From: Geotalea uraniireducens Rf4
GTDB lineage: Bacteria > Desulfobacterota > Desulfuromonadia > Geobacterales > Geobacteraceae
DNA length: 32,000 nt
Reading direction: 5' to 3'
NCBI RefSeq assembly: GCF_000016745.1
Contig: NC_009483.1
Location: 1,560,001-1,592,000, forward strand
Shown: piece by piece, positions 11,817 to 32,000 of the stretch
How the letters are laid out: each line of letters begins with the position of its first letter
Position numbering within the stretch: the stretch's first letter is position 1
Made by a program: the position numbers and the translations under genes
Notes under the pieces: generated by a model
Seen by the model: only the letters and a program-made list of their open reading frames with translations
Database searches by the model: none
What the model was told of the DNA's origin: nothing

Positions 11817-13741
11817 GTGCGCCAGGCATGGCGCGTGGCGCGTAAGCGCCATCCAATTGGGTATGGTGCCTGATTGGTGACTTGGAGGTGAAAGTCCTCT
11901 TCGGACCCTGATGGTGGGAACCGATAGCTGAACAGCAAGGGTGTCCGGGGCGACCCGGAATCTGAAGGAAGCTGTAGGCAAAGTCCTGGCCCGACGAACA
12001 GGAATCGCATATGAGGCAGCCACATCTGGGCGAGAAGGCAAACAGATTCAAAGCCCGATAACCATCCAGAAAGATGTGGAAGTAGATGCGGCGGGTATAT
12101 GGGATGAAGGTCACGCGCATTACCCTGGGAGGTCTGTCAACCTGCCTTGTGCTACCGGCATCGAGAGGTGCCGGGATGGGTTGGCAGAAGTCAGCAGAGG
12201 CCATACGAGTCGGAATAACCGACCGACAAAGGGCCGAACTTGAAGTAAGCGGACAGGAGCCTTGAGTTTCGATGACGACAGGAGCAGCAGAAGGCCGGGT
12301 TGGGATACCCGGCGCCAGCCCGGAGGGTAGCGGTTGGAAACCGCGAGAGAAAGGGAGAGGTGCGGCAAACGTCACGGGAAGGAAAGCAGCTCACTGGCCG
12401 GAAGCGGCAACGGGACTGATGGAGAAGATCGTCAGTCGCGGCAACATGATGGCGGCATACTCACGGGTAATGCGCAACAAGGGAGCGCCCGGCGTCGATA
12501 ACATGCCGGTAACGGCCCTGAAGGGCTACCTACAGGAGGAATGGCCGCGCATCAGAGAAGAACTGCTGACGGGAACGTATCACCCGCAACCGGTGCGGAA
12601 AGTAGAAATTCCCAAACCGGGAGGCGGCACACGGATGCTGGGAATTCCCACCGTCCTTGACCGACTCATTCAGCAGGCGGTGCATCAAGTTTTGAGCCCG
12701 CTGTTCGACCCTGGTTTCTCCATAAGTTCCCACGGGTTTCGCCCTGGACGGAGCGCCCATCAAGCGATCAAGGCAGCTCGGAAGTATGTAGAGAGCGGCC
12801 TTAGGTGGGTGGTTGACATTGACCTTGAGAAATTTTTCGACCGAGTCCACCACGACACCCTTATGTCGCTGGTGAAACGCAAGGTTGGAGACCGTCTGGT
12901 GCTGTCCCTTATCGACAGCTACCTTAAGGCAGGGATACTTGAAGGAGGAGTGACGTCACCCCGGTTGGAAGGCACGCCGCAAGGCGGGCCTCTCTCGCCG
13001 CTGCTGTCCAACATCCTCCTCGACGAACTGGACAAGAAACTGGAAAGAAGGGGCCATAAGTTCTGCCGCTATGCCGACGACGCAAATATCTATGTTGCAA
13101 CGAGGAGAAGCGGCGAGCGTGTCATGGCCTCAATTACCGGCTACCTGTCCGAGCGGCTCAAGCTCACGGTCAACCAGGGCAAAAGCGCGGTTGACCGTCC
13201 GTGGAAAAGGTCGTTTCTGAGTTACAGCATGACCCGGCACCGCAAACCGCGGCTTACCGTGGCCAAGAAAGCGGCTGCCAGGCTCAAGGCCAACCTCAAG
13301 ACGATCTTTAGGCGGGGAAGGGGTCAGAACATCCAAACCACCGTTGAAGAGACAACCCCGAAACTTAGGGGTTGGTTAAACTACTTTCGGTACGCGGAAG
13401 TAAAAGGCATCTTCGAGGAACTGGACGGATGGCTGAGACGTAAACTGCGTCGCATTCTCTGGAAGCAGTGGAAGCGCCCCAAGACGCGAGCAAAGAAACT
13501 GATGCGGCGGGGATTATCGGAGGCAACTGCATGGCGGTCGGCCACAAACGGCCGCGGCCCCTGGTGGAATGCAGGGGCCGCGCATATGAACAAAGCTGTT
13601 CCGAAATTCTACTTCGACAAACTGGGGCTGGTATCACTCATAGACCAGCTTCACCGACTTCAACGTACTTCATGAACCGCCGTGTACGGAACCGTACGCA
13701 CGGTGGTGTGGGAGGACGGCGGGAGCAATCCCGCCTCCTAC
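11817..13741 (+). mobile_element. Group II intron, class C (IIC)-like, about 1.9 kb
   Basis: The 5' end is GTGCG at 11817. An internal RT/maturase ORF is present. Domain V-like helix at about 13678-13707 (CCGCCGTGTACGG-AA-CCGTACGCACGGTGG) has a 2-nt bulge and a CGC triad instead of AGC. A domain VI-like helix is GGAGGACGGCGGGAGCAATCCCGCCTCC, ending ..CTAC at 13741. It is inserted about 10 nt after a terminator hairpin, in the same orientation. The 3' boundary is good to a few nt only. Confidence 0.85.
12419..13675 (+). CDS. ltrA: Group II intron reverse transcriptase/maturase (no endonuclease domain)
   Basis: KGAPGVDNM (RT0/1), PKPGGGTRMLGIPTVLDRLIQQA, GTPQGGPLSPLLSNILL, RYADDANIYV (YADD catalytic box), and maturase X domain RGWLNYFRYA. 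The C-terminus is GPWWNAGAAHMNKAV..LGLVSL with no HNH. The start was set at MEKIVSRGNMM (12419); the upstream part of the track ORF is intron RNA. Confidence 0.9.
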   Translation: MEKIVSRGNMMAAYSRVMRNKGAPGVDNMPVTALKGYLQEEWPRIREELLTGTYHPQPVRKVEIPKPGGGTRMLGIPTVLDRLIQQAVHQVLSPLFDPGFSISSHGFRPGRSAHQAIKAARKYVESGLRWVVDIDLEKFFDRVHHDTLMSLVKRKVGDRLVLSLIDSYLKAGILEGGVTSPRLEGTPQGGPLSPLLSNILLDELDKKLERRGHKFCRYADDANIYVATRRSGERVMASITGYLSERLKLTVNQGKSAVDRPWKRSFLSYSMTRHRKPRLTVAKKAAARLKANLKTIFRRGRGQNIQTTVEETTPKLRGWLNYFRYAEVKGIFEELDGWLRRKLRRILWKQWKRPKTRAKKLMRRGLSEATAWRSATNGRGPWWNAGAAHMNKAVPKFYFDKLGLVSLIDQLHRLQRTS

Positions 13742-13764
13742 CCGATTTCGTCCCCAACTCCCCG

Positions 13765-28363: not shown

Positions 28364-28399
28364 TGGCGCCGTGAGGAGTGAGGAGAAATGGTCATCAAG

Positions 28400-28426
28400 G
28401 GGCAACCAGCGGGTTGCCCTTTTTTT
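28400..28426 (+). terminator. Rho-independent terminator (after the M24 peptidase gene)
   Basis: GGGCAACC-agcg-GGTTGCCC followed by T7. Confidence 0.85.
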
Positions 28427-28470
28427 GATTCATTCCCATGTTTTAGAAGTATTTAAATATCTAATGTTAA

Positions 28471-28498
28471 TTGACTATGCCAGTGTTTATGGTATGTG
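28471..28498 (+). promoter_or_regulatory. Candidate sigma70 promoter of the small-ORF/AsnB-like operon
   Basis: TTGACT, a 16-nt spacer, then TG-G-TATGTG (extended -10-like). The conserved box ATTAATTTGCAATGATT (28506-28522) lies at the predicted transcription start. Confidence 0.5.
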
Positions 28499-28578
28499 AA
28501 TTGGTATTAATTTGCAATGATTAAGATGCGCGGTCTAGGGTTGATAAGTCAGGAATAATAGCCAAGGAGGAAAAAACG

Positions 28579-28752
28579 ATGGACAACAAAAAGAGCAAAA
28601 GTGCAGCAATCACCGCTGGCACCGGCGAGACTTGGGATACAGGGTCCTGCCGTACATGGAGCAAACCCATAGTCACGCGTATCAACATTAAGAAAACTAT
28701 GTTGTCAACTGGCAGTGTTAATGATGGCGATGGAAGTACCAATGAAGGGTAA
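28579..28752 (+). CDS. Unannotated 57-aa small ORF: candidate RiPP (lasso-like) precursor peptide
   Basis: It is below the 60-aa cutoff of the ORF track. A strong SD, AAGGAGG, lies 8 nt upstream of ATG 28579. Translation: MDNKKSKSAAITAGTGETWDTGSCRTWSKPIVTRINIKKTMLSTGSVNDGDGSTNEG. It sits 87 nt upstream of, and co-directional with, an asparagine-synthetase-like gene. Confidence 0.6.
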   Translation: MDNKKSKSAAITAGTGETWDTGSCRTWSKPIVTRINIKKTMLSTGSVNDGDGSTNEG

Positions 28753-28839
28753 CACACACGTATGTCGGCCACCAGGAGTCTTGCCCGAGAACGCGGGCAG
28801 CAAATACTTAAAAAGACATATTGTGCCCCAGGAGTATAA

Positions 28840-30759
28840 ATGAGCTGTATCTTCGGTTTTTTACGGCGTGATGGTGCTTCAATCGCACCGCTTACCATGG
28901 AGACCATGCGGCGTCACATGGCTGAATGGGGGCCGGACGGCGGTGACGTGTTGCTGGACGGTCCTGCGGCGATGGGACAGATGCGTCTGTTCAGCACGCC
29001 TGAGGCGACGTATGAGAAGATGCCGCTCATTGATGCGGCAGAGGGCTTCATCTTTACCGCGGCCGGACGCGTGGACAACCGGCAAGAGTTGATCGCGGAT
29101 TGCGGATTGCGGATTGCCGAATATGAAAAATGCGGAATCCCGGATGGTGAAGTGATCCTTCAGGCCTATCGCAAATGGGGCGAGGATTGCCCGAAGCGCA
29201 TTTACGGAGACTGGTCTTTCGCCGTATGGCATCCCCGTGAACGCAGGCTTTTTCTCGCCCGCGACCACTATGGCAACACATCGCTTTATTATTATGCAGA
29301 CCGGCATGTGTTTGCCTTTGCTTCTGACCGCAAAGCATTGCTCGCACTGGACCTTGTGCCCAAAGAGATGGACGAACTCTACCTTGCACAGGTGCTGGTT
29401 TCGTGGCCTGCTTATCACGGAGAGCGCACCATCCACACGCCTGTTAAGCGCCTGCCGCCTGCGCATTGCCTGACAGTTTCGCATGAACGCCTCGATGTGC
29501 GCCGGTATTGGCGATTGGAAGAGACTCCCGAACTGCGCCTGCCACGGCGTAATGATTATGTAGAGGCATTTCGCGATCTGTTCGATGAGGCGGTACGCTG
29601 CAGACTGAGGGTTGCAAACGGCGGCAACACACAAGGAAATGGGGCCGGGCAAATTGCCGTAACACTCAGCGGGGGGCTGGATTCCGGGTCGGTTACTGCC
29701 ACGGCGGCGCATTTCCTGCGTAACGAAGGTAGACGCCTGACAGCTTTTACTTCTGTGCCGCTTTCGGATACAAGCGCCTATGTAAAAAAGAACTTTGGCG
29801 ATGAGTTTCCCTTTGCCCGGTCTACCGCGCAATTCGCCGGGAATGTAGATCATCTGCCCATCACCGCGGCAGCAATTACGCCCATACAGGCAATTCGTCG
29901 GATGCTTCGGATTCACGGCGAGCCGGCGCACGCCGCTGGAAATTTTTTCTGGATGCTGGAGCTGGAAGAGACTGCACGTGCCTGTGGCTGCCGTGCCCTG
30001 CTCACCGGTCAGGTGGGTAACGGTGGCATCTCATGGACAGGTGATGTGTTCTCACAGCCGCTCGCATTGCAGTTACGCCATTATGGCTGGAGGAAATGGA
30101 CAAAGGAAAGCGCAAAGCGGATTGCATCCCCTGTCTTGCTGAAGGCATACCGCCGCGCGCGAATGCCGAAGGATTATTCATGGTGCCAATCATCCGCCAT
30201 CCATCCTGATTTTGCTCGCCGCTTGAACCTGCTGGAACAACGATTGAACGACCCTGCCGAGCATCCGCGCAGTCCGCAAGAAAAGCGTTTTCAGATTCTC
30301 CAGCCCGGCTGCTCCTTTGTCGGTGCGCTGCATGCCCAAATGGGGGCAGCTCACGGGCTGGAAATACGCGACCCTACTGCAGATGCACGTGTCCTCGCCT
30401 TCACGCTCTCGGTGCCCGACTACATCTTCATGGACCCGACGACGGGGCTGGATCGTTGGCTCATCCGCGAGGCCATGAAGGGCCGTCTGCCGGACGAGGT
30501 GCGTTTAAATCGCGAGAGGGGTCGTCAGGCGGGCGACCTTGTCCCTCGGCTTCGCGCCTGCGCCGACGAGGTAGAAACCGCCCTGGACGAGTTGGCCGTG
30601 GGGCCTGCGGCCGCCTATCTAAATGTGCCTTATATGCGCGAGGTGTGGGCAATGGTCCGCACCGATGACACTCCGGAAGCTTTTCGCAAGTCGGTAACCA
30701 TTCTCACCAGAGGCATCATGGCCGGATTGTGGGTGAATGGGTTCTACAATGTAACCTGA
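28840..30759 (+). CDS. Asparagine synthetase B-like ATP-dependent amidotransferase (lasso-peptide-cyclase-like)
   Basis: 639 aa. The N-terminal Ntn-like domain starts MSCIFGF, so the Cys is not at position 2. The PP-loop SGGLDS lies at nt 29668-29685 (IAVTLSGGLDSGSV), followed by an AsnB-type C-terminal domain. SD AGGAG is 5 nt upstream. Confidence 0.88.
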   Translation: MSCIFGFLRRDGASIAPLTMETMRRHMAEWGPDGGDVLLDGPAAMGQMRLFSTPEATYEKMPLIDAAEGFIFTAAGRVDNRQELIADCGLRIAEYEKCGIPDGEVILQAYRKWGEDCPKRIYGDWSFAVWHPRERRLFLARDHYGNTSLYYYADRHVFAFASDRKALLALDLVPKEMDELYLAQVLVSWPAYHGERTIHTPVKRLPPAHCLTVSHERLDVRRYWRLEETPELRLPRRNDYVEAFRDLFDEAVRCRLRVANGGNTQGNGAGQIAVTLSGGLDSGSVTATAAHFLRNEGRRLTAFTSVPLSDTSAYVKKNFGDEFPFARSTAQFAGNVDHLPITAAAITPIQAIRRMLRIHGEPAHAAGNFFWMLELEETARACGCRALLTGQVGNGGISWTGDVFSQPLALQLRHYGWRKWTKESAKRIASPVLLKAYRRARMPKDYSWCQSSAIHPDFARRLNLLEQRLNDPAEHPRSPQEKRFQILQPGCSFVGALHAQMGAAHGLEIRDPTADARVLAFTLSVPDYIFMDPTTGLDRWLIREAMKGRLPDEVRLNRERGRQAGDLVPRLRACADEVETALDELAVGPAAAYLNVPYMREVWAMVRTDDTPEAFRKSVTILTRGIMAGLWVNGFYNVT

Positions 30760-30820
30760 AATTGAGATGAGTGAAAACATTACTTGCAGACGGTGGATAG
30801 TGAAGAGGAAAAGTCATCAA

Positions 30821-30847
30821 GGGCAACCAGCGGGTTGCCCTTTTTTT
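30821..30847 (+). terminator. Rho-independent terminator (after the AsnB-like gene)
   Basis: GGGCAACC-agcg-GGTTGCCC followed by T7. Stem and loop are identical to those at 28400-28426. Confidence 0.85.
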
Positions 30848-30892
30848 GAATTCGTTCTCATGTTTAAGAAGCGTTTAAATAGAAAATAATAA

Positions 30893-30920
30893 TTGACAGT
30901 GTCCTGGTTTGTGGTATTTA
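30893..30920 (+). promoter_or_regulatory. Candidate sigma70 promoter of the GNAT/tail-collar operon
   Basis: TTGACA, a 16-nt spacer, then TG-G-TATTTA (extended -10). The conserved box ATTAATTTGCAATAATT lies at 30929-30945. Confidence 0.5.
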
Positions 30921-31079
30921 GATTTAACATTAATTTGCAATAATTGTTAAACTTTATTTTTTGGTAAAGCATACCTGGTATGTCAACCAATCTCAGGCGT
31001 TCTTCAGCGATTCAGAAGCATCTGTCGCTCTCATGTGATTTGGTACGATATGTTGGACATGTCGAACGTCTGGATTCCC

Positions 31080-31583
31080 ATGGAAAACCATAACACCGCC
31101 ACGAAAAGGAGCGAAACTATCCATTTCCGCCCCATTACTGATGAGGATATGGAATTCCTGTACCGTCTGTACGCCTCCACGCGGCTCACGGAGATGGCCG
31201 TTACGGGATGGAACGAAACTCAGATCGAGGCTTTCCTGAGGATGCAGTTCAGGCTTCAGCACATGCAGTATATGCAGAACTATCCCGGTGCATCTTTCAA
31301 TATCGTTTTCATTGACGGCACGCCCGCCGGAAGGCTGTATGTGGACCGCAAAGAGGACAGGATGCTGGTCATCGACATCTCGCTGTTGCCTGACTTCAAG
31401 GGAAAAGGCGCGGGGGGAAGAATTTTGCGGGCACTGGTCGAAGAGGCCGATGCCAAGGGGCTTGTCATGAGTCTGCACGTGGAGAGAAGCAACCCGATTC
31501 TGCAGTTCTATAAAGCGCTCGGTTTTAGGGAACTGGAGTTGAGAGGCATGTACTACTACATGGAGAGAGAACTGTTAAATTGA
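31080..31583 (+). CDS. GNAT-family N-acetyltransferase
   Basis: IHFRPITDEDMEFLYRLY... is followed by the acetyl-CoA-binding motif LLPDFKGKGAGGRILRALVEEA and then FYKALGF. The start is uncertain: the ORF is open from 31035, ATG codons lie at 31059 and 31080, and none has a good SD. Confidence 0.75.
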   Translation: MENHNTATKRSETIHFRPITDEDMEFLYRLYASTRLTEMAVTGWNETQIEAFLRMQFRLQHMQYMQNYPGASFNIVFIDGTPAGRLYVDRKEDRMLVIDISLLPDFKGKGAGGRILRALVEEADAKGLVMSLHVERSNPILQFYKALGFRELELRGMYYYMERELLN

Positions 31584-31591
31584 GGAAAAAG

Positions 31592-31720
31592 ATGGGTGAA
31601 GGTTACCGGCTGTCACACCCAGACATTGGGGATTTCGTTCTTTTCCTCGGACCGGTGGATATCAAAGGGAGAGACGGGATGTATTACGAAGCGGTTTTTA
31701 ACCGTCTGACGTCACGCTAG
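31592..31720 (+). CDS. Unannotated 42-aa ORF, hypothetical
   Basis: MGEGYRLSHPDIGDFVLFLGPVDIKGRDGMYYEAVFNRLTSR. SD GAGGA is 5 nt upstream, and the ATG is 8 nt after the GNAT stop. It lies between the GNAT and tail-collar genes and is below the ORF-track cutoff. Confidence 0.4.
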   Translation: MGEGYRLSHPDIGDFVLFLGPVDIKGRDGMYYEAVFNRLTSR

Positions 31721-31835: not shown

Positions 31836-32000
31836 ATGAGCGATCCGTATCTTGGCGAGATCAGGATGTTCGGCGGAGACTATGCGCCGGAGAATTGGCA
31901 TTTTTGTGACGGCACTCTGCTGCCGATCAGTGGCTACGATGCGCTCTATTCACTCATCGGCACAGCCTACGGCGGTGACGGGATCAACAACTTCGCCCTG
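31836..32000 (+). CDS. Phage tail-collar domain protein (microcystin-dependent-protein/MdpB-like), 5' partial
   Basis: MSDPYLGEIRMFGGDYAPENWHFCDGTLLPISGYDALYSLIGTAYGGDGINNFAL is the canonical N-terminus of tail-collar (PF07484-type) proteins. SD AAAGGAGGA is upstream, and the ORF runs off the window end. Confidence 0.8.
   Translation, partial: MSDPYLGEIRMFGGDYAPENWHFCDGTLLPISGYDALYSLIGTAYGGDGINNFAL

Follow-up and report, generated by a model that had tools for sequence, protein, structure and literature searches.

Near the right-hand end of a 32,000-nt stretch of the Geotalea uraniireducens Rf4 genome (NC_009483.1, positions 1,560,001 to 1,592,000; the whole stretch is called the window below, and coordinates refer to it) lies a 57-codon open reading frame (ORF), ORF57 or A1, which occupies 28579-28752 on the plus strand, ends in TAA and is annotated only as 'hypothetical protein' in Geotalea (Geobacter) uraniireducens. 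The evidence assembled here makes it likely that A1 is translated and serves as the precursor of a lasso-type ribosomal peptide, with a ring-closing enzyme of its own, C1. A first-pass annotation of this DNA had read A1 as a possible lasso precursor. Its coordinates and residue numbers (W27, P30, V32, T40, M41, D49 and T12/G14/D20) are all correct, and its reading is supported by the invariance of W27, P30, T40 and D49 among related precursors and by the adjacent cyclase homologue.

The A1 translation is MDNKKSKSAAITAGTGETWDTGSCRTWSKPIVTRINIKKTMLSTGSVNDGDGSTNEG, and a ribosome-binding site, AAGGAGG, stands 8 nt 5' of the ATG (28564-28570, plus strand). Residues 1-41 (28579-28701) form the putative leader, in which an N-terminal extension common to the C1 clade (MDNKKSKSAAITAGTGET...) is followed by the recognition segment W27-S-K-P30-I-V32-T-R-I-N-I-K-K-T40-M41 (W27 at 28657-28659, P30 at 28666-28668, T40 at 28696-28698, M41 at 28699-28701). 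An aromatic-xx-P-x-L motif (YxxPxL) and a Thr two residues before the core are recognised hallmarks of lasso leaders (PMC6784204). Cleavage is predicted after M41, and would release the core LSTGSVNDGDGSTNEG (residues 42-57, at 28702-28752 with the stop codon), in which L42 (28702-28704) is core residue 1 and D49 (28723-28725) core residue 8. The predicted product has an isopeptide bond between the alpha-amine of L42 and the side chain of D49, which gives a ring of 8 residues followed by a tail of another 8, GDGSTNEG; this tail contains no F, W, Y, R, H or K and no Cys, and its C-terminal residue is Gly. The computed monoisotopic mass M of this 16-aa macrolactam is 1490.612 ([M+H]+ 1491.619), compared with 1508.623 for the linear core.

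Conservation of A1 and its precursor family

A1 was assigned to no family by the Pfam and NCBIfam libraries. With A1 as the single query, a word-indexed search returned A1 itself and nothing else, and an exhaustive phmmer search gave 12 matches, ten of them small peptides. The family came to light only by way of the surroundings of cyclase homologues and of a profile search. When genomes were scanned for relatives of C1 and the flanks were read, each close C1 homologue was found to be adjoined by a small ORF with the same motif. In Desulfobacterota, Nitrospirota, Chloroflexota, Brocadiaceae, Riflebacteria and Sporomusa such ORFs stand beside C homologues, so that the homologous small ORFs next to AsnB-like genes that the first-pass annotation proposed to look for exist across many phyla. 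The A1-type precursor co-varies with its adjacent cyclase homologue.

We aligned 15 non-identical precursors of Desulfobacterota, Nitrospirota, Chloroflexota, Brocadiaceae, Sporomusa and unbinned metagenome-assembled genomes (MAGs). W27, P30, T40 and D49 were the only invariant columns (15/15 each); among the residues that had been named for a conservation test these four are therefore conserved, and D51 is not. A profile hidden Markov model (HMM) built from the 14 precursors of other organisms, with A1 left out, was run against the 826 stop-to-stop segments of the window and recovered A1 at 61.5 bits (E = 2.2e-18), while the second-best segment reached E = 0.16. Over the 15-codon leader motif, the entropy summed across the 15 orthologues was 10.1, 7.5 and 20.0 at codon positions 1, 2 and 3, third positions thus being about twice as variable as the others, and non-synonymous differences per site (pN) were fewer than synonymous ones (pS) in all 105 orthologue pairs. 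The codon entropies and the pN/pS comparison show that selection acts on the peptide and not on the RNA; together with the HMM score and the invariant columns they show that the reading frame is conserved. Loss of the frame in orthologous loci was the outcome that would have pointed to a non-coding leader, a scenario that the conserved frame rules out. By these measures A1 is a coding, conserved gene.

The profile of the 15-precursor alignment found at least 107 small proteins of 46-99 aa, all unnamed and none with a Pfam domain. The strict motif was matched by 102 of the 107, and tail statistics were taken on 95. The aromatic leader residue is Trp in 102/102, and the Thr at -2 is followed by Met in 79 and Leu in 18. 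Asp occupies core position 8 in 95 of the 102 and Glu does so in 2, three have D/E at position 9, and the core is 14-17 residues long in 86/102. Gly and Ser abound in the ring, a pattern x3-G-S-x2-D being frequent among the listed cores when judged by eye, and A1 retains this G4-S5 signature as well as all four invariant residues. Of the tail residues 51% are Gly, Ser or Thr; Ser or Thr occurs among the last four residues in 90/95 tails, and 32/95 tails lack F/W/Y/R/H/K. Residues at the C-terminus of the 95 include T (16), G (15), I (13), P (9) and S (8). The family can be recognised by the invariant W, P, T(-2) and D8, the G4-S5 ring signature and a Ser/Thr-rich, plug-less tail.

The aromatic-x-x-Pro-x-hydrophobic motif, the penultimate leader Thr and the Asp at core position 8 all hold up across the family, the motif with paeninodin-type spacing. 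The family data account for each of the four features that had been listed as not fitting a lasso precursor. Two turn out to be ordinary: a long N-terminal extension is normal for the subfamily, 25-34 residues preceding the Trp in A2 (the second precursor of the island, described below) and in the precursors of loci L003, L005, L083 and L088, and Leu is the most frequent core residue 1 (19/102). A second possible cleavage and ring site, T12-A-G14...D20, was rejected, because W19 and D20 vary and the segment is absent from most family members.

Cyclase C1 and the surrounding island

C1 (28840-30759, plus strand, with an AGGAG ribosome-binding site upstream) starts 87 nt downstream of A1 and encodes a 639-aa Asn-synthetase-like, putatively ATP-dependent macrolactam synthetase with GATase_7 and Asn_synthase domains and an intact PP-loop, SGGLDS, at residues 277-282. 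Its best NCBIfam match is NF033535, the lasso isopeptide cyclase (350.6 bits, E = 1.9e-104); C2, the second cyclase of the island, scores 353.5 bits, and the best aligned stretch for C1/C2 covers profile positions 1-390/407 of 668. Because its score lies below the family cut-off of 525 bits, we refer to C1 as a lasso-cyclase homologue and not as a member of NF033535. A search for C1 homologues gave 1276 sequences, a metagenome scan with C1 added few further close relatives, and a PDB sequence search returned generic Asn-synthetase-type structures only. In the cyclase tree C1 has the shortest branch of its clade and groups with cyclases whose precursors have the A1-type N-terminus, a segment MDNEK..[IM]T.GTG being common to the precursors of that clade. 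Cyclases of a Desulfobacteraceae MAG and a Nitrospirota MAG share 77-78% identity with C1, and C2 shares 66%; the cyclases of the A1 family are 28-33% identical to the Bacillus paeninodin-type ones. The 87-nt spacer between A1 and C1 contains a 7-bp GC-rich hairpin with no T-run after it (28781-28800, plus strand; minimum free energy of the region 28750-28842, -22.5 kcal/mol; z = -1.9, weak evidence), which may be a partial attenuator, or else serve to stabilise the mRNA.

No RRE (RiPP recognition element, a domain that binds leaders of peptides that are made on ribosomes and modified after translation) and no leader peptidase is encoded inside the window or adjoining A1-C1. The genes that follow are shown by L038, a public contig that is identical to the window at this locus and continues downstream (window coordinate = L038 + 26549, extrapolated). 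C1 is followed by a GNAT acetyltransferase gene of 167 aa (31080-31583, ATG at 31080), the first gene of a module that comprises GNAT, DUF6916 and three phage-tail-collar (PF07484) genes. The DUF6916 ORF (31592-31720) has 42 aa and matches Pfam profile positions 61-91 of 91 only, compared with 104 aa for the Sporomusa homologue, and is probably a truncated remnant. The first collar gene starts at 31836 and runs past the window end at 32000, all on the plus strand, and two more precede A2 on L038.

A2 (33633-33803 extrapolated; L038 7084-7254) consists of the leader MDRDKQSCPDSSVISGESVAASTRSAWSAPTITRIEIKRTM and the core AGASVALDSSLFTTH, with bulky L, F and H in its tail. The product predicted for A2 has a computed [M+H]+ of 1458.722. 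In the protein collection A2 comes solely from a Logan assembly (P0128); it is absent from the listing of the NCBI genome record and seems to be unannotated there. The genes that follow, at extrapolated coordinates, encode C2 (633 aa, 33881-35782), two HprK-like kinases, K (35772-36578) and X (36575-37483), a sulfotransferase with a Sulfotransfer_1 domain (37476-38345), the PqqD-type RRE protein B1 (38335-38631; weak match to TIGR03859 PqqD), the peptidase B2 with a Transglut_core3 domain (38603-39067; NF033537 at 111.6 bits, above the cut-off of 33) and an EamA transporter (39111-39548). B1 and B2 therefore lie about 9.6 kb downstream of A1, beyond the window, in the same orientation and in the same island.

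With these genes a pathway can be proposed. B1 would bind the leader motif W27-x-x-P30-x-V32 ... T40-M41, the transglutaminase-fold peptidase B2 would cleave after M41, and the co-transcribed C1 would adenylate the side chain of Asp49 with ATP and join it to the freed amino group of Leu42. Ser53 and Thr54 of the tail would probably be O-sulfated and/or phosphorylated by the sulfotransferase and the two HprK-like kinases of the cluster, and the sulfate or phosphate could serve as a steric lock, by analogy with the proposal made for pseudomycoidin (PMC6993621). Here we infer the cleavage site, the ring linkage, the use of B1 and B2 in trans, the tail modification and the threading; that B1 and B2 act on A1 in trans is an assumption, since they are not adjacent and a terminator-like hairpin follows C1.

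Upstream of A1 lie an IcmF-like mutase, a thioesterase, a nitroreductase and an M24 peptidase gene, all unrelated, in which the GC content of third codon positions (GC3) is 0.76-0.85. It falls to 0.50-0.76 in the lasso and collar genes from 28397 onward, consistent with horizontal acquisition and with an island boundary at the terminator of the M24 peptidase gene. A 148-nt direct repeat flanks A1-C1 on both sides; along this length its two copies are 79.7% identical (E = 3e-29). Copy 1 (28377-28522, plus strand), upstream of A1, contains the terminator hairpin of the M24 peptidase gene (28397-28422) with its T-run, then an AT-rich promoter-like stretch (AATTGAC ... GGTAT) and the 17-mer ATTAATTTGCAATGATT at 28506-28522. 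Copy 2 (30799-30945, plus strand), after C1 and before the GNAT gene, likewise has a terminator hairpin (30819-30842), a promoter-like stretch (TTGACA) and the 17-mer ATTAATTTGCAATAATT at 30929-30945. The consensus of the 17-mer, ATTAATTTGCAAT[G/A]ATT, occurs twice against 0.01 occurrences expected by chance, and the 148-nt repeat was found in no related locus. A1-C1 is thus an apparent transcription unit of its own between two terminators, and the duplicated terminator/promoter segment may give A1-C1 and the next operon the same regulation. In L005, L090 and L091 the gene order is GNAT, three collar genes, A and C. The arrangement is most simply read as the insertion of an A-C module on the upstream side of the GNAT operon, along with a copy of that operon's upstream region. 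A recent tandem duplication of A2-C2 was rejected as the source, given the 66% identity of C1 to C2 against 77-78% to the MAG cyclases; the A1 leader, moreover, has the N-terminal motif of the C1 clade. A1-C1 sits at the island's 5' edge as an extra precursor-cyclase module, with a cyclase of a clade distinct from that of A2-C2.

Gene content was compared among 15 distinct related loci. The set A-C-K-X-sulfotransferase-B1 is present in 13 of them, while B2, NTP_transf_5 and ABC transporter genes are variably present. GNAT, sometimes DUF6916, and three consecutive PF07484 genes lie directly upstream of the lasso precursor and cyclase in 5/15 loci (L038 4531-6942, L005 3561-5757, L090 4187-6505, L091 4111-6592 and L092 3958-5523), among them loci of Geobacteraceae and of the Firmicute Sporomusa; no paper joining lasso peptides with tail-collar proteins was found in the searchable literature. 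Genes for a CysD-like PAPS_reduct protein and a CysN/APS-kinase fusion adjoin the lasso/sulfotransferase cluster in Sporomusa silvacetica (L091 1-2086) and in a Riflebacteria MAG (L093 2511-6389, where TauE is also among the sulfate-activation genes). These genes for the synthesis of 3'-phosphoadenosine 5'-phosphosulfate (PAPS) beside the cluster support a real sulfation step and would fit a PAPS-dependent one acting on the peptide. In a Chloroflexota MAG (L089 6602-10976) the cyclase is flanked by two precursors and accompanied by K and X, with no sulfotransferase, B1 or B2 in the 7 kb downstream; this may be a B-less cluster variant. P0124, a 99-aa protein on a 6971-nt metagenome contig, has a cyclase-like N-terminus (MSAVFGILRRDG...WGPD) that runs straight into an A1-like precursor 72% identical to A1, a sign that cyclase and precursor modules have undergone recombination or truncation. 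Elsewhere in the window, an Rfam scan of its whole length gave only a group II intron (11944-13746; matches to D1-D4 and to domain V/VI), which contains a 467-aa ORF at 12272-13675, and no match in the A1 region.

Points against a lasso product and alternative explanations

Several observations weigh against A1-C1 as a working lasso system. All the evidence for the pair is from sequence. Both C1 and C2 stay under the curated NF033535 cut-off, which belongs to a clade-specific 'exception' model, and B1 scores under that of NF033536 (63.2 against 80 bits). B1 and B2 are separated from C1 by the genes running from GNAT through the sulfotransferase, and a terminator-like hairpin stands directly 3' of C1. 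The G. uraniireducens island is alone among the loci examined in having a second cyclase; all the others have one, in many cases beside several precursors. The tail GDGSTNEG has no classical plug that would hold a threaded topology. Finally, the leader-bearing ORFs beside the closest C1 relatives (L001 5074-5865, L039 9074-9865 and L040 4496-5500) end 6-8 codons past the cleavage site and have no Asp8, the residues after T-L being AGIGSPP*, EMEEST* and YEATAYV*, and one L040 copy lacks the Pro. The cyclase beside them is 77-78% identical to C1 and lies in a full cluster; these ORFs are either decaying precursors or substrates for a non-lasso process, and they indicate that precursor decay occurs in the C1 clade.

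The alternative that survives best concerns topology. The same enzymes may form the L42-D49 ring and yet yield an unthreaded branched-cyclic lactam, the small tail slipping out unless it is modified; we regard this outcome as possible though unlikely, and it is a variant of the lasso model. The first-pass annotation was right that the A1 tail has no bulky residue. Its view that this speaks against a lasso precursor does not stand, as the trait is shared by the 32/95 family tails without F/W/Y/R/H/K and has a precedent in pseudomycoidin. Pseudomycoidin made without its kinase and nucleotidyltransferase is reported not to be threaded, and an added bulky residue is reported to restore threading (PMC6993621), which fits an unthreaded A1 product; the authors of that work also proposed that bulky modifications at the C-terminus are a third way of locking the peptide. 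The A1 island encodes three candidates for tailoring (K, X and the sulfotransferase), and this, together with the Ser/Thr among the last four residues of 90/95 tails, argues against an unmodified, unthreaded product and makes a modification-based lock plausible.

This chemistry could extend to the whole subfamily, although we consider the following extension improbable. Its members would be lariat peptides of very small size, with a Ser/Thr close to the C-terminus bearing an O-sulfate and/or phosphate as the obligatory steric lock or the functional group. What defines the subfamily is its W-x-x-P...T-M/L leader, a ring of the form x3-G-S-x2-D and a short tail of Gly/Ser/Thr, together with a sulfotransferase and two HprK-like kinases. 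The peptides may also be tied to the GNAT and three-collar module, for example as ligands or cofactors of an apparatus that lies at the surface or binds receptors, and not be antibiotics.

That A1-C1 is a silent or decaying orphan, acquired horizontally or duplicated, cut off from the B proteins and no longer yielding a product, is improbable as well. Its distance from B1 and B2, the terminator-like hairpin after it, the low GC3 of the island, the shortened precursors beside the closest cyclase relative and the P0124 fusion, which shows that such modules get rearranged, would all agree with this. However, the A1 and C1 ORFs are intact and have strong ribosome-binding sites, A1 keeps the four invariant residues and the G4-S5 signature, C1 keeps its PP-loop and the shortest branch in its clade, and the module has its own copy of the promoter-like repeat.

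There is only a slim chance that C1 matures A1 without B proteins, a host protease removing the leader, so that A1-C1 would be a self-sufficient minimal lasso system. For pseudomycoidin, it is reported that psmC and psmA on one plasmid are enough for product and ring formation, in E. coli and in B. subtilis, that a host protease removes the leader, and that B-less clusters occur (PMC6993621). The position of A1-C1 in its own apparent transcription unit between two terminators would suit such a system, but the invariance of W27, P30 and the Thr at -2 across the family speaks for selection that still maintains recognition by B1/B2, and B1 is present in 13/15 related loci.

The idea that A1 is no lasso gene but a non-coding leader or regulatory upstream ORF of the asnB-like gene, or else a PqqA-like precursor from a different class of RiPPs, has practically no standing and is already refuted as far as sequence analysis reaches: all that speaks for it is the likeness to PqqA in WxKP and the hairpin in the A1-C1 spacer, against a conserved frame and amino-acid motif with variation mostly at third positions, a variable C-terminal core with a fixed Asp8 as is typical of RiPP precursors, no Rfam match in the region, no pqqB-E or radical-SAM genes in the A1 neighbourhood (window and L038) and no Glu-x-x-x-Tyr pair in the peptide.

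Relation to known lasso peptides and significance

The lasso-type precursor that we favour for A1 is closest in design to those of paeninodin (Paenibacillus dendritiformis) and pseudomycoidin (Bacillus pseudomycoides). Leader spacing is the same, with the aromatic residue at -15, Pro at -12, a hydrophobic residue at -10, Thr at -2 and Met at -1, and the W/P/V/T positions of A1 match the Bacillus precursors of L008, L009, L012 and L016; the paeninodin-type precursor of L008 reads MKKEWRNPELSILNINLTM/AGPGIKTPD..., and the Bacillus pattern is ...T-M/AGPG....D, the slash marking the leader-core junction. The island of A1 also shares with these systems the split B1 (PqqD RRE) and B2, an Asn-synthetase-like cyclase and an HprK-like kinase and, in many relatives of A1, NTP_transf_5 (PsmN-like) and ABC transporter genes. 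Tails that may lack a natural plug are a further shared trait (PMC6993621). There are also differences. The predicted ring of the A1 family has 8 residues (X1-D8) and not 9 (A1-D9), its core has 14-17 aa compared with about 23-26, and its leader carries a long N-terminal extension. Whereas the precursors of L008-L016 all end in Ser, the kinase target, Ser is not conserved at the C-terminus of the A1 family, where T, G, I, P and S are among the residues that occur, and A1 itself ends in Gly. A1-type loci have two HprK-like paralogues and a PAPS-type sulfotransferase in 13/15 cases.

Short class II lasso peptides such as sungsanpin, chaxapeptin and citrulassin resemble the predicted A1 product in size, with a core of 15-16 aa, an 8-membered ring on Asp8 and a residue 1 other than Gly, which in citrulassin is Leu, as in A1. 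They have bulky hydrophobic plugs, actinobacterial YxxPxL leaders with the motif at -17/-14/-12, and no known kinase or sulfotransferase tailoring. With PqqA, which the first-pass annotation had compared for the W-x-K-P string, A1 would share the mode of binding by a PqqD-fold RRE, predicted in the case of A1. A relationship does not follow: A1 has no Tyr and hence no Glu/Tyr cross-link pair, no PqqB/C/E or radical-SAM genes are its neighbours, and its partner is an Asn-synthetase-like cyclase, so that the identity of A1 as PqqA was rejected.

A lasso cluster of G. uraniireducens Rf4 (Gura_1351) had already been predicted by Letzel et al. in 2014, citing earlier genome mining, and the same work noted that some lasso clusters contain genes for HPr kinase and sulfotransferase, and found the precursors of mined clusters mostly not assignable (PMC4289311). 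Compared with the Gura_1351 prediction, in the same organism and the same island, two precursor-cyclase pairs are now resolved. In the searchable literature no product of the sulfotransferase-bearing lasso subfamily is described, the connection with sulfotransferases is drawn from bioinformatics only, and the leader string IDIKRTM was not found.

A function can thus be assigned to an ORF that had previously been only hypothetical, and the island is resolved into two precursor-cyclase pairs. A1 joins the known lasso class and adds no new kind of system; for genome biology the result is ordinary, and for natural-product mining it offers a concrete target with predicted masses. The main points of interest are the chemistry of the subfamily, with its sulfotransferase and HprK-like kinases, and the recurrent GNAT and tail-collar neighbours. 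If the proposed tail modifications are real, sulfated lasso peptides and a modification acting as a lock would be new chemistry, and if the peptides are lariat ligands, A1-C1 under its duplicated promoter would supply G. uraniireducens with a second, highly acidic ligand.

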